The notes: generated by a model not told the origin, from the sequence alone. Shown: positions 7,297 to 24,631, numbered from the stretch's first letter. The stretch: 24,631 nucleotides of DNA from Campylobacterota bacterium (GCA_034722955.1 JAYEOM010000001.1:38987-63617), one strand, 5' to 3'. Numbers and translations are program-made.

Positions 7297-8697
7297 TCAC
7301 TCATTCAGCACTCTTTTGATCTCTTCAGCTACCCTCTCTGCTCTAGTGCCCAATACGATCTGTATACTCTCTCTGTTAGGGCGTATCACTCCACTAGCAC
7401 CTAGAGTGATAAAATCCTCATCTTTGAGGCTGCTGCTATCGACTACTACCATTCTCAGACGCGTAATGCAGGCATCGGTATCTACAATATTCTCTGCACC
7501 TCCAAGTGCTGATATAAAATCTTCCGCCTCTATATATTGAGTGGTAGATTCTGCTTTTTGATCTTCTCCTGTCGTACTGTTTTGCATCTCATCAAATAGA
7601 TTTACTTTGAGGAGTTTGAGGAGTGTATATCCAGTGACAAAATAGAGAAGTCCCATAAAGAGTCCTAGGGGAAGTATAAGGATAGGTTTAGTAGCTAATT
7701 TATAGTTGATAACATAGTCTATAAAACCGGCAGAGAAGCCAAAGCCATGGTGTATATCCAAAAGTTGTGCCAGTGCCATAGATAGTCCGGCAAGAAGAGC
7801 ATGTGCTACGAATAGTATAGGGGCGACAAAGAGAAATAGGAATTCAAAAGGTTCTGTAATACCTGTCAAAAAGGAGGTCAATGCTACACCTGCCAATATA
7901 GCACCTACTTTTTTTCGTTTGGGTTTTGGGGTATGGAGATACATAGCTAGTCCCAATGCAGGCAGTCCAAACATCATCACTGGATAAAACCCTGCCATGT
8001 AGGTTCCTGCACTCTTGTCTCCTGCAAAAAAACGGGGTAGATCTCCATGTACCATGATCTCTTTGCCTGCTTTGATATATTCAAAATCACCTAGCTGAAA
8101 CCAGAAGATAGAGTTGAGAATATGGTGCAGTCCTAGTGGGATGAGCAGACGATTTAGTGTACCATAGATAAAAGTACCGACCTCTCCCAGCCCTATGATG
8201 CCTTTTGAAAAGGCATCAATAGCATCTTGAGCATATGGCCAAAAGTACCCTGCCAACACACCTACACCAATCGCAGCAATAGCAGTGATGATAGGAACAA
8301 AGCGTTTGCCTCCAAAAAATCCAAGAAATTCAGGGAGTTTGATAGAGTGAAAACGGTTATAGAGTGCTCCAGCTATCACCCCCATAATGATCCCTATGAA
8401 GACCCCCATTTTTATATCTTCATCTATAACTTGATAGACATCTTTTGCGACGAGGACACCGATCGCACCAGCTAGAGCAGCTGCTCCATCATGGTTCTTT
8501 GACAAACCATAAGCGATACCGATCCCAAAAAGCAAGTCAAGATTGCCAAAGAGAGCCTCCCCTGCAGCCTTCATAATCTCAGCAGTTTGTCCATCAAAAA
8601 TATCTCCAAAGCCAAAACGCAAAAGCAGAGCTGCCACAGGAAGGACAGCGATGGGTGTCATCAGTGCTTTACCTATTTTTTGTAAAAAATTGAGCAT
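7297..8697 (-). CDS. nagE: PTS N-acetylglucosamine-type transporter EIICB (no EIIA domain)
   Basis: LQKIGKALMTPIAVLPVAALLLR, LPEFLGFFGGKRFVPI, NRLLIPLGLHH, GITEPFEF, GFSAGFIDY (EIIC), and EIIB motif DACITRLR with the phospho-Cys. Confidence 0.88.
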   Translation of the reverse strand: MLNFLQKIGKALMTPIAVLPVAALLLRFGFGDIFDGQTAEIMKAAGEALFGNLDLLFGIGIAYGLSKNHDGAAALAGAIGVLVAKDVYQVIDEDIKMGVFIGIIMGVIAGALYNRFHSIKLPEFLGFFGGKRFVPIITAIAAIGVGVLAGYFWPYAQDAIDAFSKGIIGLGEVGTFIYGTLNRLLIPLGLHHILNSIFWFQLGDFEYIKAGKEIMVHGDLPRFFAGDKSAGTYMAGFYPVMMFGLPALGLAMYLHTPKPKRKKVGAILAGVALTSFLTGITEPFEFLFLFVAPILFVAHALLAGLSMALAQLLDIHHGFGFSAGFIDYVINYKLATKPILILPLGLFMGLLYFVTGYTLLKLLKVNLFDEMQNSTTGEDQKAESTTQYIEAEDFISALGGAENIVDTDACITRLRMVVVDSSSLKDEDFITLGASGVIRPNRESIQIVLGTRAERVAEEIKRVLNE

Positions 8698-9139: not shown

Positions 9140-10105
9140 ATGAGTAAAAATCGCAAAATTATAGATACTGAGATGGGAGAGAATACCAACATCAAAGAGC
9201 AGATACATGAAGATCGAAGAGATGAGACCCGTGAGAGTTTCGAGGAGGGGAAGAGACGCGCAGCCAATAAAAAAAAGGAGAGAGTGCCTGTCTGGATAAA
9301 ACAGGAGGTACTTGACTATGAAGATGAGCTATCGACTCTACAGATAGAGTTGTTGAAAATGCAGAGATACATCAAAGAGAAAGAGCTGAAACTGTTGGTT
9401 ATCTTTGAGGGGCGTGATGCGGCAGGAAAGGGTGGTACCATCAAGCGTATCACAGAGCACATCAATCCCCGTGGAGCAAGAGTAGTAGCACTCAACAAGC
9501 CATCTGATGTAGAGAAGACACAGTGGTATTTTCAGCGTTATATACAGCACTTGCCAAATGGGGGCGAGATAGTACTTTTTGATCGCAGTTGGTACAATCG
9601 CGGAGGTGTCGAACCTGTCTTGGGTTTTTGTACTCAAGAGGAGCATCAGAACTTCCTGCTCACCGTACCTCTACTAGAGAGAATGCTGGTCAATGCCGGT
9701 ATCATTCTCATCAAGCTCTACTTCTCTATCAGCAAAGATGAAGAGGAGAAGCGATTTAAGGAGCGGTCTACCAATCCTCTCAAACAGTATAAACTATCAC
9801 CTACAGATCAATATTCACAAACACTTTGGGATCAGTATACTATGGCAGAGCACTCAATGTTTATGGCTTCCCATACAGAAATTGCTCCTTGGAGAGTTAT
9901 AGAGTCCAACAATAAGAAAAAAGCACGCATCAATGCTATCAAACATATCTTGAATCAGATCGATTATCCAGATAAGCTCAAAAAGAAAAAGTTGAAAGAG
10001 AACAAAAAGATCAGCTTCTCTGCCAATGTAAAGATAGCAGAGTTTGATAAGTTATTTTTGACTAGACCGCCCCAAGAGGATGAGAAAGAGAGTTCAAAAG
10101 AGTAA
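9140..10105 (+). CDS. ppk2: Polyphosphate kinase 2
   Basis: FEGRDAAGKGG (Walker A), QWYFQRY, FDRSWYNR and KKARINAI motifs. Confidence 0.96.
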   Translation: MSKNRKIIDTEMGENTNIKEQIHEDRRDETRESFEEGKRRAANKKKERVPVWIKQEVLDYEDELSTLQIELLKMQRYIKEKELKLLVIFEGRDAAGKGGTIKRITEHINPRGARVVALNKPSDVEKTQWYFQRYIQHLPNGGEIVLFDRSWYNRGGVEPVLGFCTQEEHQNFLLTVPLLERMLVNAGIILIKLYFSISKDEEEKRFKERSTNPLKQYKLSPTDQYSQTLWDQYTMAEHSMFMASHTEIAPWRVIESNNKKKARINAIKHILNQIDYPDKLKKKKLKENKKISFSANVKIAEFDKLFLTRPPQEDEKESSKE

Positions 10106-10115
10106 ATAGTATATA

Positions 10116-13100
10116 CTATATCTTGGATATATAAAACTCGATCAGATCTCTATCCGCGATATTTGGGATGATGAAATCATAATCTTCGACCCTTAGGTTA
10201 GCCTCTTTACCTAAGGGCTTATCGATAAAGACAATATTTTTAACATGTTTTTTGTGAAGTATTTCGATAAGATGGTGATTGTTCTCCAAGATCAGAGCGT
10301 CTGCAAATGAGTAGATGTAGTTGACTGTTTCGAGTCTGTTTTTGTAACTTTTTAGATCACGCACTACATCAACAGTGTATCCTATACCTTTGAGGATAGC
10401 TTCAAACATTTTGCTATTGAGATCTCTCTCTCGATAGAGAATGATATCTGCAGAGTCACTATCGTAAGTGACATTGTCCGGAAAATAGCCTTTGAGTAGA
10501 GCCTTCATGGTTTTTAACTCAATGGGTTTTGGTAAAAACTCATCCATACCCTCCTTGATGAGTCTCTCTCTGTCACCCTTGAGATTGTTGGCTGTCAATG
10601 CAACGATAGGAACATGAGGGACTTGATTTTCCTCTTCATATTCCAGGATAGCATGTGTCGCTTCTACGCCGCCCATGATCGGCATTTGGATATCCATAAA
10701 TACCAAGTCATAATCATTCTCTTTTCTTAGATCTAATGCCACTTGTCCATTTTGGGCAATCTCTACAGTGATATTTATATTGGATAGTGCATGAGTGATT
10801 AACTTCTGGTTGATTGTGTTATCCTCTGCCACAAGAATAGAGAGATTGTTGAAGGTGTAGCTATCATCTTCACTGTGCTCTTTTTTCTCTATGATCCCCT
10901 TGCTCTCTATATTTAGATTACTGATGGCAGATATGCCTCTTTTGATCTTTGTAAAAGTGCTTGGTTTGTAGATAATATACTCTGCATAAGAGAGAGACTC
11001 TCTCTCCTCCTCTCGTCGCACAGTATTGTGTCTGGAGATATAAACGATTTTTAACTCTCCTTTTGGATATTTTTTGAGCTCATTTATATCAACATTTTCC
11101 ACAAACAAAATATCAGGTTTATGCTCATCGTCAAGATCAAACACCTCCTCTAGCGAAGCATACTCTATGTAGTTTGCACCTGTAGCTTTGATATACTCTC
11201 TTATATTCTCTTTTTCATCCCCCAAGAGATCTTTTTGTGGCATATAAAAGCCGATACTGTAGTCATTCTTTTCGAGAGGCAATATAGAGACCTCTGGCAA
11301 ATTCAAAGTAAAGAAGAATGTAGCTCCTTCCCCTTCCATACTATCAATATCGAGTTTGCCTCCCATAGCTAAAATCAATTTTGTTGAGATAGTCAATCCT
11401 AAACCGGTACCGCCAAACTTACGATTTGTAGAGATATCTGCTTGTGAAAATGCTTTGAAGATACTCTCTTTCTGTTCAGCACTGACACCAATACCCGAAT
11501 CCTTGACAGAGAATCTTATACTTGAAGTTTTATCCTCTTGGGCAATTTTTTCTATCCTCACCTCTACCTTGCCGCTGTCTGGTGTAAACTTGATGGCATT
11601 ACTTATGAGATTGACTAGTATCTGAGTAATCTTAGTTGGATCACCCTGCATGGTTTTAGTGATTTTGGGATCGATAAAGAGTTCAAGTTCGATATTTTTC
11701 TCATCAGCTCTTGCTCCATAAGACTCTATAGCAGACTCAAAGACTTCAAAGGGATTAAACTCAATCTTCTCTAGATCGACTTTATCCTCTTGAATCTTAG
11801 CTAGATCAAGGATATCATTGACGATTATCAGAAGATTTTCTGAACTATTATCTATAATAGTGATAAATTCACTCTGCTCCTCCGTCAAGTTGGTACTTCT
11901 CAATAGTTGAGTAAAGCCAACTATACCATTGAGAGGTGTTCTGATCTCATGTGACATATTTGCAAGAAATAGATCTTTTGTTCTGTTGGCATCTGCTATC
12001 GTATTTGCCATAAAGTTATATATCTTGACCTTCTCTTGCTTTTTGATGATAAGATTGAGCTCTTCTCTCTGTTCATCATTAAGATTGAGGCTAATATCCT
12101 CAATAGCCTCTTTGAACTCTTTGGCATCTCTACGGTAGGATTGAAATATAACATGAAGAATCAAAATAATGATAATCAAAGCAGCGATCAAGGAGAGTAA
12201 AAAGTATAACTGCTTCTTCTTTTGTGAAATATTTTCATTAAGAATTTGGTTGACTGATGAGGAGATGAGATTTTCTACTCTGGAGATCTCAGATATTTTT
12301 TCTGTCTGTACTCTATACCATTTTTTACTCTGAGAGGATTTGAGATTGTTATTGGCAGAGTTGAATATAACCTCTGTTCTCTCTATATCTACCTTATTGG
12401 AGTATATATTTTTATCAAATGAGAGATCCTTTTTTTGACCAAAAGAGCTATCCTTTAGACTATCTAGCAGAGGAGTATAGTCTCTATCTATCAGCAGATC
12501 CCATACTTCAAAATCTTTATCTGTCAACGGAGTACTCTTGTTGATCTTATACGATATAAAACCTCTCTCAACTGCACTGTTTTCCCTGATCTTTACTAAC
12601 TTAAGATATAGATCAAGAATCACTTTATTTGATTTGAGCTCTTCTAGTTGTATAAGTTTGTCAAGCTTTAAGAGTTTGACATAGGTATAGAGTTGACTCT
12701 TCTCCTTTTGACTCTCCAGCTTCTTTTGAAATTTAGCCATCTCATCAATGATGGGATTGCTGAATCTATCTCTGTAATTTTTAAAAAAGAACTCATCAAA
12801 TGGTATGTCATGAAGCTTGATCCTGCTTCTGATTTCACTCAAATCTTCTAAATTTTTGAGTAAGTTTTTAGATCCTTTTATATCCGTATTACTCTTTATG
12901 GAGTCAATGATACTATCTACAGTACCTTGTTGATTTTTAAGTTTTTCAAAACTATTTTGATCATCTGAGTCTCCCATATATATAGCAGCCAATCCTCTCT
13001 CTTCGTCTATATTGAGAAGCAGGCTATTTAGCTCCTCAAGATAAACAAGTTGTTTTTTGGAGTCAGAAAAAGTTTTATACTCATTGTACTCTAGATATGA

Positions 13101-13181
13101 GTAGTAGGAGAGGAGAAGAGCTATGACAAACAGAGGAACCAAAACCATAGATTCGAGAAATTTACTATTAACCGTTTTCAT
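10116..13181 (-). CDS. Hybrid sensor histidine kinase: TM-NIT(nitrate/nitrite-sensing)-TM-HisKA-HATPase-degenerate REC-REC-degenerate REC
   Basis: NIT-like motifs EERGLAAIY and RENSAVERG. H-box NMSHEIRTPLNG, N-box NLISNAIKFT, G-boxes DSGIG and GGTGLGL. Receiver ILVAEDN...FMDIQMP...PKP. Confidence 0.9.
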   Translation of the reverse strand: MKTVNSKFLESMVLVPLFVIALLLSYYSYLEYNEYKTFSDSKKQLVYLEELNSLLLNIDEERGLAAIYMGDSDDQNSFEKLKNQQGTVDSIIDSIKSNTDIKGSKNLLKNLEDLSEIRSRIKLHDIPFDEFFFKNYRDRFSNPIIDEMAKFQKKLESQKEKSQLYTYVKLLKLDKLIQLEELKSNKVILDLYLKLVKIRENSAVERGFISYKINKSTPLTDKDFEVWDLLIDRDYTPLLDSLKDSSFGQKKDLSFDKNIYSNKVDIERTEVIFNSANNNLKSSQSKKWYRVQTEKISEISRVENLISSSVNQILNENISQKKKQLYFLLSLIAALIIIILILHVIFQSYRRDAKEFKEAIEDISLNLNDEQREELNLIIKKQEKVKIYNFMANTIADANRTKDLFLANMSHEIRTPLNGIVGFTQLLRSTNLTEEQSEFITIIDNSSENLLIIVNDILDLAKIQEDKVDLEKIEFNPFEVFESAIESYGARADEKNIELELFIDPKITKTMQGDPTKITQILVNLISNAIKFTPDSGKVEVRIEKIAQEDKTSSIRFSVKDSGIGVSAEQKESIFKAFSQADISTNRKFGGTGLGLTISTKLILAMGGKLDIDSMEGEGATFFFTLNLPEVSILPLEKNDYSIGFYMPQKDLLGDEKENIREYIKATGANYIEYASLEEVFDLDDEHKPDILFVENVDINELKKYPKGELKIVYISRHNTVRREEERESLSYAEYIIYKPSTFTKIKRGISAISNLNIESKGIIEKKEHSEDDSYTFNNLSILVAEDNTINQKLITHALSNINITVEIAQNGQVALDLRKENDYDLVFMDIQMPIMGGVEATHAILEYEEENQVPHVPIVALTANNLKGDRERLIKEGMDEFLPKPIELKTMKALLKGYFPDNVTYDSDSADIILYRERDLNSKMFEAILKGIGYTVDVVRDLKSYKNRLETVNYIYSFADALILENNHHLIEILHKKHVKNIVFIDKPLGKEANLRVEDYDFIIPNIADRDLIEFYISKI

Positions 13182-13190
13182 ATTTTCCCT

Positions 13191-13955
13191 TTATTGGTTT
13201 TTACTATGATAAATTTCAAGAACTCTAGCGTTTTTTCTTACCTCTAGAGAGGCGAGTAGTACAATGTTTGGAGCTTTTAACTTCTTGTTATTGAGATAAA
13301 ACTTTTTAAGAACTATCCAGTTCCCTCTTAGCTTGACCAGATGAGATAGGTTTTCTGGAGAGTATTTGTACTCTTCAAGAAGTGATAGATCTCTCTCCAT
13401 CTCCTCTATGGATTGATTGAGCATCTCTGCATAATTTATACCGTCTCCTCCTATCAGAATCGCCATATAATATTTGGTCATTCTCTCAACTAGAAAAGAG
13501 ATATCTTTCATATCCATCATCATTTTTTCCTCTTTAGAGGGTGTATAGTCAATATTTCTATTGATAGACTCGGCTCCCTCCAAAAGAATCTCACTATAGT
13601 CTAGCATCAGAGATGGATTATCCTTGTCAAAAGGGTCACGGAGTACATCCTCTATCCTCTCTTTAGTATAATCCAAAAAAGCAAGTACATCTTTTGAATC
13701 TTCATCTTTTGTAGTCTTGGCAATTAGACGAAACTGCTTATCAAGGTCTGCAAGTCCGCTCTCTGCCATCTTTTTGTAGTGAATTTTTTTTGGATTACTG
13801 TAAAAATAGAGATAGTTCTTTGAAATTTCCTGACTATCTAGGCGAATATTTTCAGATGCCTGCATAAGCAAAACTTGATTTCTGATAGAAGCAGCAGATA
13901 CAAATGATAAGAAAAAGATAAACAATAATCCAATTTTTACAATACTCTTTGTCAT
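13191..13955 (-). CDS. Secreted protein with two degenerate PilJ/NarX-like helical domains
   Basis: Signal peptide. ASENIRLDSQEISKNYLY and DISFLVERMTKYYMA align by eye with the neighbour's AGKQRMLSQRMAKDYFY and AGKQRMLSQRIGKYYIA. LMLDYSEILLEG resembles IILDLSESMLEG. Confidence 0.7.
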   Translation of the reverse strand: MTKSIVKIGLLFIFFLSFVSAASIRNQVLLMQASENIRLDSQEISKNYLYFYSNPKKIHYKKMAESGLADLDKQFRLIAKTTKDEDSKDVLAFLDYTKERIEDVLRDPFDKDNPSLMLDYSEILLEGAESINRNIDYTPSKEEKMMMDMKDISFLVERMTKYYMAILIGGDGINYAEMLNQSIEEMERDLSLLEEYKYSPENLSHLVKLRGNWIVLKKFYLNNKKLKAPNIVLLASLEVRKNARVLEIYHSKNQ

Positions 13956-14776
13956 TATTTCTCCAACACCTTAACATACATAGCTACAATTTTGTTCATC
14001 TTGGAGGTGATATCGTCAGTAGTAGAGAAGACGATGATAGGAAGTCCGCCCTTCTCTATATTGAGATAAAATTTGTAGACTATTTTCCACATTTTGTTGA
14101 CTCTCAAAAGCTCTTTTTGTATCTGGGGGGTGTTGCCTTCGCTGTTTATAAGTTTGTTGAGAGCGGTATCAAACTCCTTGACAGTCTCTTTCATCTGTGT
14201 AACAGTGTTATCATCCCTGATCCCTGCTTGATAGGCAATATAATATTTTCCTATACGCTGAGAGAGCATTCTCTGTTTTCCTGCCATGTCGATGATCTCA
14301 TTGGATGATTTACCCTTGGCGAGAGCTTGTACTATATAGTTGCTTCCCTCAAGCATAGATTCGCTCAGGTCAAGAATAATCGTACCATTGTCAACACTGT
14401 AATCCTCTTTTGAGATACTTATAAACTCATCAAGACTCATATCAACAAAAGCGATGAGATTGGTAATCTCCTCATCTTTGATATTGTCAGTCAAGAGTTT
14501 TTGAGTACTCTTGAAATCTGCCAGAGTTGTTTTGAGTTGTCTATTGGCATTGCTCTTGTTGATCTTTTTTCCGGCATAAAAATAATCTTTTGCCATCCTC
14601 TGTGAGAGCATTCTCTGTTTTCCTGCCATATCAACCATCTGCCCTTCAGAGATGACTGATTGTGCAGATTGTGTCTCTATAGAAGTATCAGAAGTGGCAC
14701 CACTCTCCTGAGCAAACGCAACACTACCGACAAAGAGTGCTCCTATCGTTACAGTTTTTACTATATTCTTAATCAT
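13955..14776 (-). CDS. Secreted tandem PilJ/NarX-like (P-box) domain protein
   Basis: Signal peptide ending VAFA, two DMAGKQRMLSQR motifs, and no second TM or signalling domain. Confidence 0.88.
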   Translation of the reverse strand: MIKNIVKTVTIGALFVGSVAFAQESGATSDTSIETQSAQSVISEGQMVDMAGKQRMLSQRMAKDYFYAGKKINKSNANRQLKTTLADFKSTQKLLTDNIKDEEITNLIAFVDMSLDEFISISKEDYSVDNGTIILDLSESMLEGSNYIVQALAKGKSSNEIIDMAGKQRMLSQRIGKYYIAYQAGIRDDNTVTQMKETVKEFDTALNKLINSEGNTPQIQKELLRVNKMWKIVYKFYLNIEKGGLPIIVFSTTDDITSKMNKIVAMYVKVLEK

Positions 14777-14787
14777 TCTCTTGCTCC

Positions 14788-15555
14788 TTATTTCACATCT
14801 ACATAGAGTTTAGTCACATCGTTCATCTTCTTGGTTATCTTATTGGAGGAGCGAGCGATGAGACTTGGGATAAATTTTTTGGATTTTGATACGCCTAGTA
14901 CTTCAAAAAACATAAAGTCTTTTTTGACAGCAAGAAGACCAGCATTGATCTTATCTGTATTTTTAGGAAAAGCTTCTAGCTTTTTTTGTGCATCGGAGAA
15001 CTGATCCATAGACTTCTTCAGATCACTATCATCCATACCTACACCCCAGACTTTTAGCATATAGAGACTTGCCAATCTCTGGGAGAGCATTCTCTGTCGT
15101 CCGGATACATTGATAATCTCACCCGTACTCTCTTTGGAAGTTGCTGCGATAGCATTTGTCGCCTTATGTGCAGCAGCCAAGAGTTGATTGACAGAGTTAA
15201 ATATCTCTACAACTTTATCTTTATTTGGTGGAGAGAGAAGCTCTTTTTTGAGTGGCTCCCAGAGTGTGTCAACCTCTTGGAGAGCTTCAAAAGAGGGCTT
15301 ATCTCTCTCCTTTGCAAATGCCAACAGGTCAACTAGGGTAACTGAAAAGAGATCTGCTGACTTTTGCAGCTCCTCTTGGGGGCTTCCAAATGTTATCTTC
15401 ATGCCTATCATAGAGTAGTCTTTCATCATTCTCTGAGAGAGCATTCTCTGTTTCCCAGCTTTATTGATAGCATCATTGAGAGTTGTTATCTCTGCTTGAG
15501 AGAGTGTCACGAGAGAGCTTATCATAAAGATCCCCGATAGTATTTTTCTTTTCAT
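14788..15555 (-). CDS. Secreted tandem PilJ/NarX-like (P-box) domain protein
   Basis: Start at ATG 15555 (GGAGA RBS), signal peptide ending SQA, motifs INKAGKQRMLSQR and INVSGRQRMLSQR. Confidence 0.88.
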   Translation of the reverse strand: MKRKILSGIFMISSLVTLSQAEITTLNDAINKAGKQRMLSQRMMKDYSMIGMKITFGSPQEELQKSADLFSVTLVDLLAFAKERDKPSFEALQEVDTLWEPLKKELLSPPNKDKVVEIFNSVNQLLAAAHKATNAIAATSKESTGEIINVSGRQRMLSQRLASLYMLKVWGVGMDDSDLKKSMDQFSDAQKKLEAFPKNTDKINAGLLAVKKDFMFFEVLGVSKSKKFIPSLIARSSNKITKKMNDVTKLYVDVK

Positions 15556-15771
15556 TTCGATCTCCATAGTTCTTTGAGTCGTATTTCTCAATACATATAA
15601 AAAGTATAGATCAATTCTATCAAGTTTCGGCTAATAAAAGCCCAAATGAGTCTATTTAGATAGGTCTTGTTTTTAAAGTGTGAAATTTGGTAAAATCTTA
15701 GGCTACTCAAAGGGAATAAACATATAATTTATAGATAGCAAAGAGTTACAATTAAGAGGCATAAAATCAGA

Positions 15772-15848
15772 TGGCGCGGTGGACGAGACTCGAACTCGCG
15801 ACCCCCTGCGTGACAGGCAGGTATTCTAACCAACTGAACTACCACCGC
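15772..15848 (-). tRNA. tRNA-Asp(GTC)
   Basis: GCGGTGG...CCTGC-CT-GTC-AC-GCAGG...GTTCGAGTC...CCACCGC-G-CCA, 77 nt. Confidence 0.98.
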
Positions 15849-15870
15849 ACATATAATTAATAAGGAGTGA

Positions 15871-15879
15871 ATTATATCA
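15871..15879 (-). promoter_or_regulatory. Putative internal extended -10 promoter (TGaTATAAT) for the last tRNA-Asp
   Basis: Minus strand reads ttaagttaagctTGATATAAT, 22 nt upstream of tRNA-Asp. This stretch is absent from the paralogous Val-Asp spacer. Confidence 0.55.
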
Positions 15880-15975
15880 AGCTTAACTTAATCAAACCTA
15901 AAACAATAAACTTTAAAGTCAACTTTTTACCAACGAAATTTAGTTTCGTGAGCCGTCTGCTGAAGACGATAATAG

Positions 15976-16051
15976 TGGTGGTCGCTACAAGACTCGAACT
16001 TGTGACATCTACCTTGTAAGGGTAGCGCTCTACCAACTGAGCTAAGCGACC
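15976..16051 (-). tRNA. tRNA-Val(TAC)
   Basis: GGTCGCT...CTACC-CT-TAC-AA-GGTAG...AGCGACC-A-CCA, 76 nt. Confidence 0.98.
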
Positions 16052-16130
16052 TACAAATAAAACTGACCATCTAAAGATATAATTGCGAAACCAGTTTCGC
16101 GAGCCGTCTGCTGAAGGCAATATCAATAAG

Positions 16131-16206
16131 TGGCGACCCTTAGAGGATTTGAACCTCTGTTTCTGCGTTGAAAACGCAGTATCCTTGGCCACTAGATGAA
16201 AGGGTC
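16131..16206 (-). tRNA. tRNA-Glu(TTC)
   Basis: GACCCTT...CTGCG-TT-TTC-AA-CGCAG...GTTCAAATC...AAGGGTC-G-CCA. Confidence 0.96.
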
Positions 16207-16230
16207 ATCTAGTCCATATTAAGTCATAAG

Positions 16231-16306
16231 TGGTGACCCGTCTAGGATTCGAACCTAGGGCCCATTCCTTAAAAGGGAATTGCTCTACCAACTGAGCTAA
16301 CGGGTC
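16231..16306 (-). tRNA. tRNA-Lys(TTT)
   Basis: GACCCGT...ATTCC-CT-TTT-AA-GGAAT...ACGGGTC-A-CCA. Confidence 0.98.
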
Positions 16307-16375
16307 ATATAATCATTCAACATAAAACAGAAGCAATAAATTACATGAGTAGCCTGCTGAAGACAATATTGTAAA

Positions 16376-16452
16376 TGGCGCGGTGGACGAGACTCGAACT
16401 CGCGACCCCCTGCGTGACAGGCAGGTATTCTAACCAACTGAACTACCACCGC
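16376..16452 (-). tRNA. tRNA-Asp(GTC), second copy
   Basis: Same sequence as 15772-15848. Confidence 0.98.
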
Positions 16453-16525
16453 ACCTAAAACAGTAAATATCAACTTTTACTAATGAAACTAGTTTCATGA
16501 GCCGTCTGCTGAAGACGATAAAACA

Positions 16526-16601
16526 TGGTGGTCGCTACAAGACTCGAACTTGTGACATCTACCTTGTAAGGGTAGCGCTCTACCAACTGAGCTAAGCGAC
16601 C
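16526..16601 (-). tRNA. tRNA-Val(TAC), second copy
   Basis: Same sequence as 15976-16051. Confidence 0.98.
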
Positions 16602-16686
16602 AAATAAATATGTGATGACATTTTCATACAAAAGGCATAGATCAACAAAACTAGTTTCGTGAGCCGTCTGCTGAAGACGATATACA

Positions 16687-16762
16687 TGGTGACCCGTCTA
16701 GGATTCGAACCTAGGGCCCATTCCTTAAAAGGGAATTGCTCTACCAACTGAGCTAACAGGTC
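16687..16762 (-). tRNA. tRNA-Lys(TTT), second copy
   Basis: Same as 16231-16306 except C5->T, which gives a U5-G68 wobble pair in the acceptor stem. Confidence 0.97.
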
Positions 16763-17438: not shown

Positions 17439-17590
17439 GGTTTTTCAAAGTGTAGCGTATATACCTAAAACTCATCCTACAATTAGGGTTCAAAGCAAAT
17501 CTACGCTAAAATAGAGTATGTAGAATATCCAAGAAGAGGACTATCTATTTAGGAGTGATATCGGAGTATATCGAACTAAAAGGAGAGTGG

Positions 17591-19009
17591 ATGAGTATTT
17601 TGAAAAGTTCTGTTTTTATACTATTGGTAGCTGCAGTTATCGGTAGTTTTTATATACACAAAGATACTACACTCATAAAAGGTCAAGAGGCAGACTATAT
17701 AGGAAGTGATAGCTGCAAGCAGTGTCACAACAAAAAGCATCACAGCTGGCACCACTCAACTCATCCTAAAATATTTCAAAAATATAGTGACAGATCTCAA
17801 ATAGTAGCCGATTTCAAAAATAGACCCGATTTTGTAAAGTTTGATGAAGAGGATATAGAGGTTATAGTTGGCGGCAAGTGGGAGCAGGTATTTGCTAGGG
17901 AGATAGATGGTGAGTACTATCCGTTTCCTGCCAAATGGTTGAATCTCACAAAAGAGTGGGTACCCTACAAGACGGACAAATGGAGAGATACCCCATTGAA
18001 TCAAAAGTGCAACGGATGTCACACTACAGGACTGAATGTAAAGACAGGAGAGTTTAAAGAGTATGGAGTCTCTTGCGAATCTTGCCATGGACCAGCTAGC
18101 AGACATGTACAAAACAAGCGTATCCTAGGAGACCCGAAGTGCACTATTTGTCATAGCTCAAAGAGTCTCAAAGATGAGCTTGAAAAAGAGATGGATATAG
18201 TTGTATCGATCAAGTCAGCTGTATGTGGGCAGTGTCACAGCAGAGGGATAGAGAAGATACTAAACTCCCATGAGACACAAGTAGAGTTTAATTTCCCTAT
18301 CGAATATCTTCCTGGGCAGATGCTGAGCAAAAACTTTCAACAGACAACTCCACAGAGTGATAAAAAAGGCAAAAATTGGTGGGGCAATGGTATCTCCAAA
18401 AATAGACACCAAGAGTATGCCGACTTTGCCAAGTCAGGACATTCAAAATCTCTAAGAAATCTACGAACAAAGAGAAGAGTCGCGTGCAAAGAGCATCCCA
18501 ACGACAACTGCCTAAAGTGTCATAGTGGTGACTATATCATAGCAAAAAGACAAAAAGATAGACTAGACAATAAAAAGAGCATAACACTGCCAACTATAGA
18601 TAATGCCAAAGATAGCATAACCTGTGTTGTATGTCATCAACCCCACAAGGTAGGAGATAGCAGTATAAAGGTCTCCGACAAATGCATAGAGTGCCATACC
18701 AAAGATACAAAAACACTAAAAGAGCATAAAAAACACTACCCATGTCCCAGCCAAAAGGTCACTTGTGTTGATTGTCATATGCCAAAAATTGCCAAAACAG
18801 GAGGGAAATTCACTATAAGAAGCCATGCCTTTAGGATCATACCGCCAGAGGCAACTATAAAATACGGTATGCCCAACTCTTGTCAAAATGGATCTTGCCA
18901 TGCAGATAGATCAACAAAATGGGCAATAGATGAATATAGTAAATTTTATAAAGATAGAAATATCACAAAAAATTTGGCAAAAGAGATAAAGGGGTGGAGC
19001 AGTGAGTAA
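17591..19009 (+). CDS. Membrane-anchored or periplasmic multiheme cytochrome c (9 CxxCH + 1 CX4CH)
   Basis: AAGGAGA RBS and N-terminal hydrophobic anchor. Motifs CKQCH, CNGCH, CESCH, CTICH, CGQCH, CLKCH, CVVCH, CIECH, CVDCH and CQNGSCH. Confidence 0.93.
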   Translation: MSILKSSVFILLVAAVIGSFYIHKDTTLIKGQEADYIGSDSCKQCHNKKHHSWHHSTHPKIFQKYSDRSQIVADFKNRPDFVKFDEEDIEVIVGGKWEQVFAREIDGEYYPFPAKWLNLTKEWVPYKTDKWRDTPLNQKCNGCHTTGLNVKTGEFKEYGVSCESCHGPASRHVQNKRILGDPKCTICHSSKSLKDELEKEMDIVVSIKSAVCGQCHSRGIEKILNSHETQVEFNFPIEYLPGQMLSKNFQQTTPQSDKKGKNWWGNGISKNRHQEYADFAKSGHSKSLRNLRTKRRVACKEHPNDNCLKCHSGDYIIAKRQKDRLDNKKSITLPTIDNAKDSITCVVCHQPHKVGDSSIKVSDKCIECHTKDTKTLKEHKKHYPCPSQKVTCVDCHMPKIAKTGGKFTIRSHAFRIIPPEATIKYGMPNSCQNGSCHADRSTKWAIDEYSKFYKDRNITKNLAKEIKGWSSE

Positions 19010-20858
19010 AAAAATCATCTTTTATCGTAAAATCATCTTCAAGATATTTATCTTGATATCTCTTGTACTGTTTGGTGCATTTGGCATCAATATGATACTA
19101 ACCAATAAAATGCTAGACGAAAGGATAGAACAGAGAATTTTAAGTGATTTTGATTTGGCTTATAACACAACTAGGAACTTTATCAATCTAGTGTCTCAAA
19201 CTTCTCAAATGTGGGCAAAAGATGTAGCATCACACTCTGAACTTTTAGATTCCGATAGGGATAGGTTGAAGAGATATCTTCAAGAAAAAAAGATAGAGAT
19301 GTCTGCCGATTCTATCATACTGTTGAACGATAAAGGTGATATACTGGCACAAATAGGAAGCGAACATATCGTGGATGATTCGCTAGCATATAGAGATATC
19401 GTCCGTCAAACCATCAGAAACCAGACACAGACAACAAAAATAGCCAGAGAGAGAGAAACCTTCATACTCTACTCATCTGCTATCGTCAAAGGGGAGGGAG
19501 ATCTATCGAGAGTCCTAATGGTGGGTTATTTTATCAATGATATATTTTTGGAAAATATCAAAAATAATACTCATCTAGAGTTGGCCTTGATAGGAAATAG
19601 TGCTGTTATGAGCTCCACAAAGTGGGGATCATCACAAAATCTTGCTAAACTGCCAATATCCTATCTGCAATACCAAAATCTACTTAAAAACCCAAAATCA
19701 ACAAGCCAGACAAGATATCAAGATAGATTATATATAGTAAATGTAAGAGAGTTGACCGATAGAGAGTCTCTCACATCAGGATCTATACTGTTAGCTTATC
19801 CATATGATACTATAGCCAAAGAGAAAAGCAGACTATCTAGAAAAAAACTCTTTATCTTTTATGTGATTATATCTGTATCTTTGATCTTGATATATATAGT
19901 TGTGAGAAAATATCTAAAGACTATCAATGAGTTGACAGATGCTATAGAAGATATCTCTGCTCAAAAAACCTATAGAGATATCGATATCTATACAAAAGAT
20001 GAAATCGGACTTTTGGCATATAGCTTCAACCAAATGGGAAGTGAGCTAAATATACTGCATACCGATATGCAGCATCAGATAGAGAGTAAAACTAAAAAGC
20101 TAGATGAACTAAATAAAAATCTTGAAAAAAAGGTAGAGGAGGAGGTTGAAAAAAATCGTCAAAAAGATAAAATAATGCACTTTCAGTCTCGCTTGGCACA
20201 AATGGGAGAGATGCTATCTATGATAGCCCACCAGTGGAGACAGCCGCTCTCAGCTATCTCCTCTGCAAGTGCAGGATTGGAACTCAAGGCAGAACTAGGC
20301 AAAGCAGATAAGGATACAATCATAAAACAATCTAAAAATATAACTAAATATACACATTTTCTTAGTGAAACGATCGATGATTTTAGAAATTTCTTTAGAG
20401 CAGATAAGTGTGAAATAGAGACATCCTATAGTGATATTATCACCTCTGTATTAAGCATAACAGAGAACTCCTTAACCAATAAAAATATATCTATTATCAA
20501 AGAGTTCAATAGTGAAGATAGATTTATGACATATCCAAATGAGATAAGACAGGTGATACTCAATCTCATCAAAAATGCAGAAGATATTTTAGTAGAGAAG
20601 AGTGTAGAGGATCCTTATATAAAGATTGTAACTCACAAGAGCAACAACAAGGACATATTGGAGATCAGTGACAATGGAGGTGGAGTACCTGTAGAGATCA
20701 TAGATAAAATCTTTGATCCATACTTCTCTACAAAACTAAACAGAGATGGTACGGGATTGGGACTCTATATGTCAAAGACTATCATAGATGAGCATTGCCA
20801 TGGTGAACTAACCGTATCCAACACAAAAGATGGTGCACTGTTTAGTATCACACTATGA
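19002..20858 (+). CDS. Membrane sensor histidine kinase (TM-Cache-like-TM-HAMP-HisKA-HATPase)
   Basis: Two TM helices, HAMP DEIGLLAYSFNQM, H-box MIAHQWRQPL, NLIKNAED, DNGGG, GTGLGL. GTG start overlaps the cytochrome stop by 8 nt. Confidence 0.93.
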   Translation: MSKKIIFYRKIIFKIFILISLVLFGAFGINMILTNKMLDERIEQRILSDFDLAYNTTRNFINLVSQTSQMWAKDVASHSELLDSDRDRLKRYLQEKKIEMSADSIILLNDKGDILAQIGSEHIVDDSLAYRDIVRQTIRNQTQTTKIARERETFILYSSAIVKGEGDLSRVLMVGYFINDIFLENIKNNTHLELALIGNSAVMSSTKWGSSQNLAKLPISYLQYQNLLKNPKSTSQTRYQDRLYIVNVRELTDRESLTSGSILLAYPYDTIAKEKSRLSRKKLFIFYVIISVSLILIYIVVRKYLKTINELTDAIEDISAQKTYRDIDIYTKDEIGLLAYSFNQMGSELNILHTDMQHQIESKTKKLDELNKNLEKKVEEEVEKNRQKDKIMHFQSRLAQMGEMLSMIAHQWRQPLSAISSASAGLELKAELGKADKDTIIKQSKNITKYTHFLSETIDDFRNFFRADKCEIETSYSDIITSVLSITENSLTNKNISIIKEFNSEDRFMTYPNEIRQVILNLIKNAEDILVEKSVEDPYIKIVTHKSNNKDILEISDNGGGVPVEIIDKIFDPYFSTKLNRDGTGLGLYMSKTIIDEHCHGELTVSNTKDGALFSITL

Positions 20859-20871
20859 GGAGGTTTGTGCT

Positions 20872-20906
20872 AGGCTACCCCAAGGAGATAAGGCTACCCC
20901 AAGGAG
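20872..20906. repeat. 16-bp direct repeat, two copies (aggctaccccaaggag)
   Basis: Exact copies at 20872-20887 and 20891-20906, in the intergenic region. Confidence 0.85.
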
Positions 20907-20984
20907 GCTCAGACGCTAGTTTGATAATCTCCATTATATAACACAAATAAACAGTATGGTAGAATAGATCATTCAGGAGTCTCT

Positions 20985-22787
20985 ATGCGTGCTATTATTT
21001 ACCTATTTCTATCTCTTTCTCTTCTGCCTTTTCAAGCCAATGCAGCCAGAGAAGTTCAGTCCAACAATATAGAGAAAGAGTTGATCCAAGATCATCAGCA
21101 GGCAGCTATCGGCAACGGAGTAGATTGCAACAGAAGCAGACAGATCAATTTTACAGAGGATGATCTCTCTTGGATAGAGCAGCACCCACAAATAAACTTT
21201 ACCGGTGATCCCAACTGGTTGCCGTTTGAAGCATTTACCAAGGAGGGTAAATATATCGGTATCATTGCCGGCTTGATAGATATCATCGAGAAGAGAAGTT
21301 CACTCAAAATCAACAAAATACCCACAAAAACTTGGGAAGAGTCCATAGGTCATCTCAAAAGTGGCAAAGTCAACATGCTAACCGAGACTACCGACTCTCC
21401 ATTGGGGTCAGAATTTCTCTTTACTCAGGCTATCTTGCCCAATCCTATCGTAGTTATGATGCAGGAGGGAAATCCTTATGTACACTCACTCAGACAACTA
21501 TCTACAAAAAAAATAGCTATTATCAAAGAGTATGGATATATATTCAAAATCAAAGAGAAATACCCAGACTATGACTTTCATGAAGTAGATAATATTCAAG
21601 AGGGTCTATATGGTGTAGCAGAAGGAAAATATGATGCCATGCTGACAACGATGGCTCTAGGTAGCTACACTATGAAAAATATGCAGCTTAGCAATATCCA
21701 AGTTGTCGGCAAAACCGAGTTTAATACACAGATCGGTTTCGCTATCAGTCGTGAATATGCACCTCTAGTTGGTATCTTGAACAAGATTATCAATAGTATA
21801 GACGAACAGACAAAACAGAACATAATGGACAAATGGGTTACCCAGGAGTATATAGAGAAGATCGACTATACGCTTATCTACCGGATAGCTTTTATTGCGT
21901 TTCTGATTATCAGTGGGACACTTTTTTGGAGTTGGCGTCTCAAAAAAGAGATCCATCGTCGTACAATACTCGAAAACAAGCTTGCTCGTGTCAACAAGCA
22001 GATCACTGATTCTATTGAGTTTGCTGCGATTATTCAGCAAGCTTTCATCCCTGAAGAGAGGGAGCTTTCCCTCTTTTTTGAAGACTATTTTACTATCTGG
22101 GAACCTAGAGATATCGTAGGAGGTGATATCTATTTTTTTGATAGACTCAACGACAGAGATCAAGCACTGCTGATACTCATAGATTGCACTGGGCATGGTG
22201 TGCCAGGTGCATTTGTCACAATGCTGGTCAAAACACTAGCTCGCAATCTCCTCTCCTTTATCAACAAAGAAGATGAAGAGGTTGATCCGGCAAAACTATT
22301 GACCATCATCAATCGCTCTTTGAAGCATCTGCTCAAACAACACAATAAAAATTCTCTCTCCAATGCAGGATTGGATGGGGCCATTGTCCATATCGACAGG
22401 AGAGAGTGCAGAGTTATCTATGCCGGAGCCAATATTCCTCTTTTTTACAAAAGAGATACTACAATAACAATGATCAAAGCAGATCGGCACTCTCTGGGGT
22501 ATAAGACATCAAATACCGACTTTATGTTCAGTAACCATCAGCTCTCTTTTGATCAAACAGTGCAGTTTTATCTCACAACTGATGGCTACATCGATCAAAA
22601 TGGCGGAGAGAACGGCTTCCCTATGGGGAGAAAACCATTCAGAAGAGTGCTTGAGACCCATACAGAGGCATCTATGCAAGAGCAGAAGAGTCTCTTGGAA
22701 GAGGCACTTATGGTCTACCAAGGGGATGAAGATCGCAATGATGATATCACTGTCATTGGATTTAGATGCAAAGGGGTAAACGAATGA
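20985..22787 (+). CDS. SiaA-like membrane PP2C/SpoIIE phosphatase with a periplasmic solute-binding (family 3) sensor domain
   Basis: Signal peptide, DPNWLPFE...YIGI (PBPb), one TM, then PRDIVGGDIY, IDCTGHGVPGAF, GLDG, LTTDGYIDQNGG and RNDDITVIG. Confidence 0.88.
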   Translation: MRAIIYLFLSLSLLPFQANAAREVQSNNIEKELIQDHQQAAIGNGVDCNRSRQINFTEDDLSWIEQHPQINFTGDPNWLPFEAFTKEGKYIGIIAGLIDIIEKRSSLKINKIPTKTWEESIGHLKSGKVNMLTETTDSPLGSEFLFTQAILPNPIVVMMQEGNPYVHSLRQLSTKKIAIIKEYGYIFKIKEKYPDYDFHEVDNIQEGLYGVAEGKYDAMLTTMALGSYTMKNMQLSNIQVVGKTEFNTQIGFAISREYAPLVGILNKIINSIDEQTKQNIMDKWVTQEYIEKIDYTLIYRIAFIAFLIISGTLFWSWRLKKEIHRRTILENKLARVNKQITDSIEFAAIIQQAFIPEERELSLFFEDYFTIWEPRDIVGGDIYFFDRLNDRDQALLILIDCTGHGVPGAFVTMLVKTLARNLLSFINKEDEEVDPAKLLTIINRSLKHLLKQHNKNSLSNAGLDGAIVHIDRRECRVIYAGANIPLFYKRDTTITMIKADRHSLGYKTSNTDFMFSNHQLSFDQTVQFYLTTDGYIDQNGGENGFPMGRKPFRRVLETHTEASMQEQKSLLEEALMVYQGDEDRNDDITVIGFRCKGVNE

Positions 22788-23701
22788 AGAGTGAAAATTT
22801 GACTCTCTTGGAACGATTGGATGAGGTGATCGATTCGGAGACTATAGATGAAGCTAAAATCAGAGCGGTTTTAAAAGAGAGCCGAAAATCTATCAAGCGT
22901 TTTGATACAATCCTCAAGCAGTCCGACAAACAACTCTCGCAACAGGTACATCAACTCGAAGAGGAGTTTGAACTTAGAGTACATAGTGAACGGATACTAG
23001 CCCAGCAAGCCAAACATGCTGCTATGGGAGAGATGATGGATGCCGTAGCCCATCAGTGGAAGCAGCCACTCAATGCCATCTCTATGCTCACTGATCTACT
23101 CCTGATAGAGTACAGAGAGGGTGAAGTAGATGAGGCTTATCTTAAGAATTATAAAAAAGTTCTTTGGGAGCAGATCGATCATCTCCTCAATACCTTGACA
23201 GAGTTTCGATCCTTTTTTAGACCAGACAAAGAGAAGAGAGATTTCAATATTCGCCATGCGATTGATTCGGTTTTGCTACTCATCAAAGATGAATTTTTAA
23301 AAGAGATGATCTCCTTTATCATAGAGGGAGATGAGAGACTGGAGTTATATGGTGTAGAGAATGAGTTCAAACATATCATCCTCAATATCCTCAACAATGC
23401 CAAAGATGCCTTCAAAGAGAATGCTATCGCATCACGAAAAATCTCATTTGACATTTACCAAGAGAGCGACATGATCATCTTGGAGATTTGTGACAATGCC
23501 GGTGGCATACCTGCCTCTGTCATTGAGACTATCTTCAAGGCAAATGTCACTACCAAGGCTGAGGGGAAGGGAACAGGAATCGGACTCTATATGAGTGCAC
23601 AGATTGCAGAAAAGATGGCTGCCTCATTGACCGTGACCAACAGAGATGATGGGGCATGCTTCTCATTTAAATCCCAAAAATCTAAGGGGGGAAGAGTATG
23701 A
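22784..23701 (+). CDS. Soluble histidine kinase with short N-terminal coiled coil, 305 aa
   Basis: ATGA overlaps at both ends. H-box AVAHQWKQPL, NILNNAKDA, DNAGG, GTGIGL. No TM or sensor domain. Confidence 0.92.
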   Translation: MKSENLTLLERLDEVIDSETIDEAKIRAVLKESRKSIKRFDTILKQSDKQLSQQVHQLEEEFELRVHSERILAQQAKHAAMGEMMDAVAHQWKQPLNAISMLTDLLLIEYREGEVDEAYLKNYKKVLWEQIDHLLNTLTEFRSFFRPDKEKRDFNIRHAIDSVLLLIKDEFLKEMISFIIEGDERLELYGVENEFKHIILNILNNAKDAFKENAIASRKISFDIYQESDMIILEICDNAGGIPASVIETIFKANVTTKAEGKGTGIGLYMSAQIAEKMAASLTVTNRDDGACFSFKSQKSKGGRV

Positions 23702-24240
23702 ATATGCTCACATTTAAGGATATACTAGAGAGAGAAGGTGTACTTTTCAGTTTTAGCGGTACTGTTTCACAAAACATCTTGAGCAGTCTTGCGGAGACAC
23801 TTGAAAAAGAGTTGAATGCAACAGGTATTGCCTTTACCCTCATCCAAAATATCTTTTCTATTTTTACTGAACAGATGCAAAATATCATGAGTTACTCACA
23901 AGAGCGTATTCACCTAGGAGATAACGCTTTTGAGAGTCCCGGTATCTGCATTGTAGGGTATGATCAGGATAGAGGACACTTCTTTGTGAGCTCTGCAAAT
24001 ATCATTCATCCCGAAGATGAATCAAAACTGAGTAAAAAATTGGATAAAATCATACCTATGAAAAAGAGTGAACTCAGAGAGTACTACAAAGTATTGCGAC
24101 GAAGTGGCAGAGAGAAGCATGGCAGAGGTGCAGGTCTGGGTCTATTGGAGATGGCAAAAAAAAGTGCACTTCCAATGGAGTATGAGATTACCCACTTGGA
24201 TGAAAAGCGATCATTTTTTGAAATAAAAACCTATATCTAA
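23698..24240 (+). CDS. siaB: SiaB-family protein kinase
   Basis: FSFSGTVSQ, FSIFTEQMQNIMSYS, SANII and GAGLGLLEMAKKS motifs. Adjacent to siaC. Confidence 0.9.
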   Translation: MNMLTFKDILEREGVLFSFSGTVSQNILSSLAETLEKELNATGIAFTLIQNIFSIFTEQMQNIMSYSQERIHLGDNAFESPGICIVGYDQDRGHFFVSSANIIHPEDESKLSKKLDKIIPMKKSELREYYKVLRRSGREKHGRGAGLGLLEMAKKSALPMEYEITHLDEKRSFFEIKTYI

Positions 24241-24250
24241 CGGAGTAAAA

Positions 24251-24631
24251 ATGGAAAATTTACATATTGAAGCGACAAAATATACACCACAGATTGATCT
24301 GGATGCCAAAGCCGGCCTGCTCTGCTTTTCGGGCAAAAGCTATCCTGAAAATACCTTTGACTTCTACCAACCCACGATGAAGTGGATCCAAGAGTTTTTT
24401 GAACAAGATAGAGAGATAAAAAGCCGGCTTAAGATGGATATCATCTATTTTAACTCAAGTAGCTCCAAACTCTTTTTTGATCTTTTTGATATCATCGAAG
24501 AGGCACAAGATGCAGGAAATAGTATCACTATAGAGTGGTTCTATGATGGGGAAAATGAAAATGCTTTGGAGGCAGGCGAGGACTTTAAAGAGGATTTTGA
24601 ATCTCTCGATTTTAATCTCATAAAGAGATAA
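24251..24631 (+). CDS. siaC: SiaC-family (DUF1987) regulatory phosphoprotein
   Basis: IEATKYTP, SGKSYPEN, FYQP, YFNSSSSK, IEWFY and EAGEDFKED motifs. Confidence 0.93.
   Translation: MENLHIEATKYTPQIDLDAKAGLLCFSGKSYPENTFDFYQPTMKWIQEFFEQDREIKSRLKMDIIYFNSSSSKLFFDLFDIIEEAQDAGNSITIEWFYDGENENALEAGEDFKEDFESLDFNLIKR

Follow-up and report, generated by a model that had tools for sequence, protein, structure and literature searches.

Architecture of the locus

The DNA analysed here is a window of 24,631 nt (G000:C1:38987-63617; coordinates below are counted within this window, which is the whole stretch analysed) from a vent-type Sulfurovum-like bacterium. On its minus strand lies a cassette of four co-oriented open reading frames (ORFs), which we describe as a candidate periplasmic sensing system and which encode three small proteins, referred to here as P1, P2 and P3, followed by a hybrid sensor histidine kinase. 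P1 (14788-15555, minus strand, 255 aa counted from an ATG) and P2 (13955-14776, minus strand, 273 aa) are predicted to be secreted tandem-PilJ proteins, and P3 (13191-13955, minus strand, 254 aa) is predicted to be a secreted paralog of P2 that lacks the ligand-type sequence boxes described below. The start of P3 overlaps the stop of P2 by 1 nt, and the kinase gene (10116-13181, minus strand) encodes 1021 aa. For P1 there is an alternative start at an upstream TTG (15591), from which the frame is also open. A preliminary description of this DNA had reported four co-oriented genes with gaps of 11, -1 and 9 nt, and neither a response regulator nor a histidine phosphotransfer (HPt) gene next to them; recomputation gives the same gap values and a Pfam scan agrees that neither kind of gene adjoins the cassette.

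P1 and P2 are predicted double-bundle proteins with two N-boxes each

In the Pfam scan both P1 and P2 are matched by the PilJ family (PF13675, cut-off 26.6 bits) in two stretches each and well above the cut-off, with 76.2 bits for P1 and 77.2 bits for P2. The two intact G[KR]QRMLSQR boxes that had been noticed in each of the two proteins are all found by a regular expression, namely GKQRMLSQR at residue 34 and GRQRMLSQR at residue 152 of P1, and GKQRMLSQR at residues 52 and 166 of P2. The longer N-box pattern [IVL]-[ND]-x-A-G-x-Q-R-M-L-[ST]-Q, published for the nitrate chemoreceptor McpN, is matched exactly by three of these four boxes. N-box 1 of P1 (15433-15468, minus strand; INKAGKQRMLSQ, residues 30-41) fits the pattern, and N-box 2 (15079-15114, minus strand; INVSGRQRMLSQ, residues 148-159) shows a single departure, S for A. 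N-box 1 of P2 (14600-14635, minus strand; VDMAGKQRMLSQ, residues 48-59) and N-box 2 of P2 (14258-14293, minus strand; IDMAGKQRMLSQ, residues 162-173) are located on helix 1 (residues 44-69) and helix 5 (residues 157-183), respectively, of the structural model described below.

The N-terminus of P1, MKRKILSGIFMISSLVTLSQA, reads as a signal peptide. By inspection, the N-termini of P1, P2 and P3 all consist of a basic segment followed by a hydrophobic and then a small-residue segment, as in a Sec signal peptide, and none of these N-terminal segments contains a lipobox cysteine; all three proteins read as exported, soluble periplasmic proteins. Beyond the signal-peptide-like N-terminus each has eight helices, judging from sequence and from the P2 model, which leaves no space for the output domain that had been noted as absent from the three small proteins.

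An AlphaFold2 model of P2 built from a 136-row alignment (predicted local distance difference test, pLDDT, 91.3; predicted template modelling score, pTM, 0.84) shows eight helices arranged in two four-helix bundles, with low confidence for the first 40 residues alone. We compared this model with solved structures using a search whose Z-scores are independent of Foldseek. The only full-length match was the NIT domain of NasR (VIA Z 19.1, root-mean-square deviation (rmsd) 3.4 Å, 230 residues), and the rows after it, at Z 11.7 and below, each cover one bundle and include LytS-N, McpN, McpS, NarQ, PilJ, NarX and TorS. The halves of P2 match McpN (Z 10.9, rmsd 2.0 Å, 114 residues), NarQ (Z 9.8) and NarX (Z 8.7). 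Foldseek likewise returned NasR as the sole full-length match with a moderate template modelling score (TM 0.57, E 0.033), and none of its matches reached an E of 0.001. By sequence, the best solved relative of the two-box family is the ligand-binding domain of McpN (6gcv, E 9.1e-10).

The preliminary description had proposed that each tandem protein forms a single-chain pseudo-dimer. The P2 model, with its double four-helix bundle, its boxes on helices 1 and 5 and its match to the NasR NIT domain, argues for this idea, as does the proposed nitrate pocket of NasR, which is drawn with arginines of helices 1, 5 and 6. Two N-boxes in a single chain, on its helices 1 and 5, would take the place of those on the two protomers of a homodimer, and P1 and P2 would bind nitrate, perhaps nitrite, at these boxes.

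P3 carries a different conserved motif at the former boxes

P3 is a true paralog of P2 (27% identity, E 3e-23 by BLAST); similarity between P3 and P1 is not detectable by BLASTP (E 6.1), and Pfam assigns no family to P3, PilJ included. The region equivalent to the first box (13830-13865, minus strand; MQASENIRLDSQ, residues 31-42) reads E-A-S-E-N-I-R-Y-L-S-Q across 28 orthologs. Here a glutamate (E35) stands in place of the glycine in 27 of 28, the position of the ligand arginine is kept as R38 in 25 and is lysine in the other 3, and Q42 is present in all 28. The second former box (13485-13520, minus strand, residues 146-157) was located by the ungapped register from a shared KYY. Its glycine is replaced by K150 in every one of the 28 orthologs, and its arginine position is glutamate in 17 of them and serine (S153) in the clade of the window. 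Both N-boxes are indeed gone from P3, as had been stated; to call them degenerated is imprecise, as the former boxes form a distinct motif that is conserved in the 28 orthologs. From the alignment, they appear to be a separately conserved, charge-swapped motif that was re-purposed rather than one that drifted. The charged side chains may pair across helices 1 and 5 and so fill the anion pocket, and P3 probably binds no ligand.

To place P3 among its relatives we computed a maximum-likelihood tree of 35 chosen rows (seven loci, the window's own genome and five outgroup representatives, with a midpoint root for drawing only). The P3 clade (support 100/100, long stem) is nested within the P2-type clade (100/100). 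The box-less proteins C54_deg and C59_a, from two other contigs of the same genome, group together (100/100) and are nested within the P1-type clade, to which P1 of the window also belongs. There have therefore been at least two losses of the boxes. The gene nearest to the kinase is the box-less one in both of the kinase-linked cassettes in the window's genome.

The kinase has a NIT-type sensor on which P3 is predicted to dock

The kinase consists, in order, of a transmembrane segment (TM1), a periplasmic NIT sensor, a second transmembrane segment (TM2), HisKA, HATPase_c, a stretch without family, a receiver and a 125-aa C-terminal stretch without family. The NIT sensor (12213-13091, minus strand, residues 31-323) is matched by PF08376 over residues 57-308 and profile positions 5-236 of 239, with 29.6 bits against a cut-off of 24.9 (25.2 bits in the whole-genome scan). 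HisKA (11787-11978, minus strand, residues 402-465) contains the H-box MSHEIRTPLNG and scores 74.6 bits; HATPase_c (11295-11645, minus strand, residues 513-629) scores 96 bits, with G-boxes visible in the sequence; and the receiver (10494-10838, minus strand, residues 782-896) scores 81.3 bits. Pfam gave no Hpt match in the whole kinase or in its last 354 residues, and no HAMP match in the kinase. The kinase stays below the equivalog cut-offs of BarA (397.5 versus 890 bits) and TorS (308.1 versus 676.5 bits).

We modelled the N-terminal 350 residues of the kinase from a 28-row alignment (pLDDT 88.1). The sensor superposes on the NIT domain of NasR (4akk_B) with a Z of 25.3 and an rmsd of 3.6 Å over 266 residues, the next row having a Z of 13.2, so that the structural comparison joins the Pfam score in upholding the NIT sensor that the preliminary description had assigned to the kinase. 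P1, P2 and P3 have no Pfam NIT match. On the models, all four products of the cassette are predicted to share one architecture, with a pair of adjacent four-helix bundles in a single chain.

An adaptor role had been suggested for the third protein, and a complex prediction was run for mature P3 (residues 22-254) with the kinase sensor (residues 31-323), each with its own 28-row alignment. The interaction prediction score from aligned errors (ipSAE) was 0.87, 0.88 and 0.88, as opposed to 0.08 for the best of 3 controls; among solved complexes, 116 of 157 reach the mark for this score, as do 2 of 215 mismatched pairs, counts that are only a rough guide for this pair because author-made alignments were used. 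At least 97% of the contacts are common to the runs, and the partner pLDDT is 89 or more. The predicted patch joins residues 221-238 and 265-277 of the kinase, on its second bundle, with residues 54-59 and 212-238 of P3. Four residues of the kinase sensor are invariant in 28 orthologs; two of these, W227 and R268, are among the predicted contacts, and a third, P237, falls between contact residues. No structure of such a complex is known to us, so it seems unlikely that the prediction reproduces a complex memorised by the model. The prediction supports binding of P3 to the kinase sensor, and with it the suggested adaptor role, without showing it.

P3 and the kinase form the invariant core of a conserved cassette

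Scanning species-representative genomes with P2 gave 17 loci, all from Sulfurovaceae-type Campylobacterota, in which gene types were assigned by BLAST against the proteins of the window. Twelve of the 17 hold a P3-type gene, and a kinase of this type follows P3 directly in 11 of these, the contig of the twelfth ending inside P3; three contigs of the scan end after P2. The downstream gene of L017 encodes a 543-aa protein with a weak HATPase_c match only. In L001 (L001:332-3634) the P1-P2 pair occurs twice in tandem, both copies of P2 giving the same BLAST figures; the pair may have been duplicated recently or be a repeat in the assembly.

Of the 151 Sulfurovaceae genomes sampled, 83 have P3, and these represent 8 of 11 genera. 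A sample of 301 genomes from the phylum yielded P3 in only 9, with family counts of 5 of 12, 2 of 23 and 1 of 1, and with none in the two largest families (0 of 90 and 0 of 124). We fetched the best P3 locus from 20 Sulfurovaceae genomes of 8 genera, 2 of the 20 repeating contigs of the P2 scan. In all 20 the kinase is the next same-strand gene downstream of P3. A P2-type gene is the next gene upstream in 17; there is none in L019 and L022, and the contig of L021 ends. The number of P1-type genes varies from 0 to 4 per cassette, and a cassette has between two and six paralogous bundle proteins in the loci examined. Around six related loci, the flanking genes are unrelated housekeeping genes that differ by genome, and nothing outside the cassette is conserved. 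Because the flanks vary while P3 and the kinase are constant, the conserved unit is the cassette and its invariant core is P3 with the kinase; the synteny survey thus shows a conserved linkage to the kinase.

The genome of the window holds further versions of these genes. Contig C36 (L119) carries a P3-like gene (47% identity) and a NIT kinase. Contig C54 (L118, C54:1-8000) carries a P2-type gene, a box-less P1-type gene and a 1088-aa hybrid kinase without a Pfam NIT match, as well as a 525-aa gene without a Pfam family followed by a membrane-anchored single-domain HPt protein (Hpt 28.1 bits). On C86, a NIT kinase is preceded by an HPt-containing ORF. HPt domains elsewhere in the genome are encoded on C54, C86 and C52, and candidates therefore exist for the HPt domain that is missing from the kinase of the window. 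A lone two-box protein, identical in sequence on the two contigs, is encoded on C108 and C134 (L121), next to a gene that, judging from its sequence, reads as a transposase.

The wider family is large, as 2550 of the 3959 candidate proteins that were scored have E <= 0.001, and the N-box motif is therefore not a chance feature. At E <= 1e-10 there are 465 representatives, which are unannotated two-box secreted proteins of about 260 aa. Among the 128 full-length representatives, 70 have two boxes, exactly 116 residues apart in 59 of these, and 17 have one. Longer chains of the module also occur: four PilJ stretches are present in open frames of about 560-570 aa, and several in proteins of 750-770 aa (P0138, P0162, P0165, P0175, P0229, P0241 and related genomes). 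The family genomes have up to 18 PilJ matches each. Five vent-metagenome records (P0026, P0060, P0085, P0120, P0304) are named 'Nitric oxide-responding transcriptional regulator Dnr (Crp/Fnr family)', a label that finds no support in the sequences of these secreted helical proteins, which appear to be mislabelled. In our literature search, neither the cassette nor free-standing secreted tandem-PilJ proteins were described in any publication found.

Evidence bearing on the ligand

In McpN, experiments have defined the N-box as the site of nitrate binding, the G-x-x-R of the P-box on helix 1 of NarX and NarQ is a nitrate site at the dimer interface, and some NIT receptors respond to nitrate or nitrite. 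In the genome of the window a NapA match scores 1327.5 bits, with nap on another contig than the cassette. A correlation with nap genes had been proposed as a check, and in the 151 family genomes the association of PilJ with NapA is positive, though confounded by kinship and completeness: 88 genomes have both, 21 have PilJ only, 18 have NapA only and 24 have neither, so that NapA is found in 88 of the 109 genomes with a PilJ match versus 18 of the 42 without. The three genomes with P3 but no PilJ match are all without NapA.

We also scanned metagenomes for distant relatives with a 17-row two-box alignment and examined 18 loci whose proteins are 23-36% identical; the invariance of the boxes in this alignment is circular, since its rows were chosen for having both boxes. 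Two of the 18 lie in nitrate/nitrite assimilation loci. In one of these (L091), which has two tandem-PilJ genes, the relative lies between a NarK-family transporter and NirB with NirD, the last two scoring above their cut-offs; the other (L116) adjoins a NasA/NasC-like reductase that scores below curated cut-offs. L107 was considered as a neighbour of a nitrate reductase and dropped, its best NCBIfam match being formate dehydrogenase-N alpha. In L088, L090, L101 and L109, which belong to a distant clade, the partner of the two-box protein is a c-type cytochrome (about 210 aa), and both lie in a conserved yhdP / CN-hydrolase / tldD neighbourhood.

A proposed mechanism and its alternatives

We propose that the four genes encode a multi-protein periplasmic sensor of the nitrate/nitrite type, in which P3 acts as an adaptor on the NIT hybrid kinase and the signal is relayed through an HPt protein encoded elsewhere, a reading to which we give roughly even chances. 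P1 and P2 would be exported as soluble proteins, each folding into two NarX/McpN-type bundles packed as in NIT, and would bind nitrate, perhaps nitrite, at their N-boxes. P3 would have arisen from a P2-like ancestor through conversion of the anion site, with glutamate and lysine for the two glycines, one arginine kept and the other mostly turned into glutamate, here serine. Free of ligand, P3 may sit on the second bundle of the kinase NIT sensor as a fixed co-receptor or adaptor, and ligand-loaded P1 and P2 could alter kinase activity through P3 or in competition with it. The kinase would autophosphorylate and pass the phosphoryl group to its own receiver, and from there to a separate HPt protein and a response regulator encoded elsewhere. 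The coupling of P1 and P2 to the kinase, the ligand, the sign of regulation and the output are all parts of this scheme that we infer.

Several observations weigh against this proposal. With regard to its parts, P1 and P2 are tied less tightly to the kinase than P3 is: two loci (L005, L006) carry P1 and P2 followed by unrelated genes, without P3 or kinase; contig C59 (L120) holds a box-less pair without a kinase; P3 and the kinase occur without P1 and P2 on C36 and in L019 and L022; and in one genus the three loci (L023, L030, L037) lack P1, and their P2-type gene is without boxes. In the wider family, 41 of the 128 full-length representatives are without any box. With regard to the docking, conservation of the kinase interface does not exceed that of the remaining sensor (mean entropy 2.13 versus 2.34, permutation 0.14), and the P3 interface is less conserved than the rest of the protein (2.28 versus 1.68). 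A variable interface could reflect pair-specific co-variation or a wrong interface, and since interface conservation is thus unsupportive, the docking is kept as a prediction only. Profile comparison with hhalign of the tandem-PilJ family and of P3 with the kinase NIT alignment gave probabilities of 0.5% and 1.4%, i.e., no significant homology, and our claim is therefore limited to a shared architecture and does not extend to NIT membership of P1-P3. As for the ligand, the genes flanking the cassette in six related loci include no nap, nir or nos; 21 of the 109 genomes with a PilJ match are without a NapA match, and the counts of the two are not independent; four of the distant relatives adjoin a c-type cytochrome and three are near DUF411. 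NarX also responds to nitrite and sulfite and McpN is specific for nitrate although the pockets are alike, and the NIT domain of PA4520 bound neither nitrate nor nitrite. The box alone therefore does not fix specificity.

These last points, from the range of NarX to the cytochrome and DUF411 neighbours, the missing nap, nir and nos flanks and the genomes without NapA, would also suit a sensor of the same architecture for another anion relevant to a sulfur-oxidising vent bacterium, such as sulfite, thiosulfate, nitrite alone or another oxyanion (PA4520 aside). We regard this as unlikely, as the nitrate N-box pattern is matched exactly by three of the four boxes, the closest relative with a solved structure, McpN, is a nitrate receptor, two of the distant relatives belong to loci for nitrate/nitrite assimilation and the association with NapA is positive. 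It is rather improbable, in our estimate, that the secreted proteins act instead as decoys or inhibitors, that is, as negative regulators that can be titrated, mimicking the sensor and holding the kinase NIT domain off (or on) until ligand-loaded P1 and P2 sequester P3. The NIT architecture that P3 is predicted to share with the kinase sensor and their predicted contact would agree with such a role, as would the ending of L017 in a protein with just a weak HATPase_c match; on the other side, nothing separates a decoy from a co-receptor, the predicted contact involves the flank of the second bundle, a single P3-kinase pair was modelled, and the sign of regulation is not readable from sequence. 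Lastly, P1 and P2 could be non-signalling periplasmic proteins for the binding, buffering or delivery of nitrate, for example to Nap or for uptake, which share an operon with an independent P3-kinase pair. P1 and P2 pairs standing alone (L005, L006, C59), the lone tandem-PilJ gene of C108 and C134 and the transport and reductase genes beside the distant relatives of L091 and L116 all speak for this; it is nonetheless very unlikely given that the P2-type gene lies directly upstream of P3, tightly spaced, in 17 of 20 loci, that the P2 stop overlaps the P3 start in the window, and that nap is on another contig.

Returning to the multi-protein sensor, it is tempting to speculate on a more specific version of it, which is possible but doubtful. 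P1- and P2-type proteins would be interchangeable soluble binders of nitrate or nitrite, and P3, its pocket filled by Glu/Lys/Arg salt bridges, would be a permanently docked, ligand-free mimic of the occupied state, with signalling occurring by exchange or stacking of modules. The repeated independent loss of boxes and the presence of 1-4 P1-type copies per cassette suggest that such a sensor, which would be hetero-oligomeric and periplasmic, may be re-tuned by duplicating or killing its soluble subunits.

Neighbouring genes in the window

A scan of positions 9900-16000 for promoters and terminators was uninformative (22 promoter-like sites versus 18.9 expected, 4 terminator-like sites versus 3.3). 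A search of sequencing runs for the stretch gave four DNA runs, all of one study, and no RNA run. Directly upstream of P1 are seven tRNA genes (15772-16762, minus strand) in the order Asp, Val, Glu, Lys, Asp, Val, Lys, the Asp, Val and Lys genes each occurring twice in the run; a 106-aa ORF (15872-16192) overlapping them was judged spurious. On the other side, a PPK2 polyphosphate kinase gene (9140-10105) is convergent with the sensor kinase, with a PTS EIICB gene beyond it (7297-8697), and neither neighbour is kept in related loci. A second signalling cluster occupies 17555-24631 on the plus strand. It begins with a 484-aa cytochrome with nine CxxCH motifs; the next gene, for a dCache_3-HAMP histidine kinase (19002-20858), starts within the end of the cytochrome gene. 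The cluster continues with an SBP_bac_3-SpoIIE phosphatase (20985-22787), a 311-aa kinase-like protein, a DUF6272 protein and a SiaC-family phosphoprotein, and it resembles a partner-switch module of the SiaABC type to which a multihaem protein is coupled.

Comparison with known systems and implications

We class the cassette as a candidate for accessory-protein-dependent two-component sensing built from NarX/NIT-type modules. In TorT-TorS, XylFII-LytS and QseG-QseE, a helical-bundle kinase sensor is likewise combined with a separately encoded extracytoplasmic partner, and the TorS, LytS and QseE entries (3o1h, 5xsd, 9m08) are among the single-bundle structural matches; the accessory protein here would be P3, whose gene adjoins that of the kinase in all 20 fetched loci and whose docking on the sensor is predicted only (ipSAE 0.88 versus 0.08 for the control), the conservation of the interface being unsupportive. 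The partners TorT, XylFII and QseG have periplasmic binding-protein folds or are a lipoprotein. In contrast, the partners in the cassette are predicted to be paralogous sensor-type bundles, one of them without a ligand site.

The single-chain double four-helix bundle is common to the P2 model, the kinase sensor and NasR of Klebsiella oxytoca (PDB 4AKK), and the helices 1 and 5 that bear the N-boxes of P2 are among those contributing arginines to the nitrate pocket proposed for NasR. P1-P3 differ from NasR and the other NIT receptors (PF08376) in that P1 and P2 carry PilJ-type N-boxes and in that the proteins read as free and secreted, and not as domains of a receptor or regulator. With McpN and NarX/NarQ, P1 and P2 share the N-box (three of four exact) and the fold of the single bundle; these receptors bind one nitrate on the symmetry axis of a membrane-anchored homodimer, whereas P1 and P2 are predicted to have two bundles in one soluble chain, without a transmembrane segment or output. 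In NarX and NarQ, moreover, the P-box sensor is fused to the kinase via a transmembrane segment and HAMP, whereas here the boxes are on separate proteins and the kinase has a NIT sensor without a HAMP match. The PilJ sensor of Pseudomonas aeruginosa (7ZJR, 8WDF) also has two consecutive PilJ domains and is matched by sequence at E ~1e-5. It differs in being part of a membrane chemoreceptor and in that the N-box is not conserved and nitrate is not bound. The superposition of the whole chains is poor (Foldseek TM 0.27), and the two domains are therefore arranged differently. If the P2 model is right, tandem PilJ proteins adopt the NIT architecture, which would link two families that are kept apart by Pfam and by profile comparison.

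Nitrate sensing is understood for NarX/NarQ, McpN, NasR and NreA. Vent Sulfurovaceae are major nitrate-respiring sulfur oxidisers, and to our knowledge no NarXL system is known in Campylobacterota. The cassette is a candidate for the sensing of nitrate or a related anion in these bacteria, and the assignment of a ligand to one member of the family would carry over to many others. If the proposal is true, it would be the first case known to us in which paralogs of sensor domains, and not binding proteins of the transporter type, serve as soluble co-receptors of a histidine kinase.

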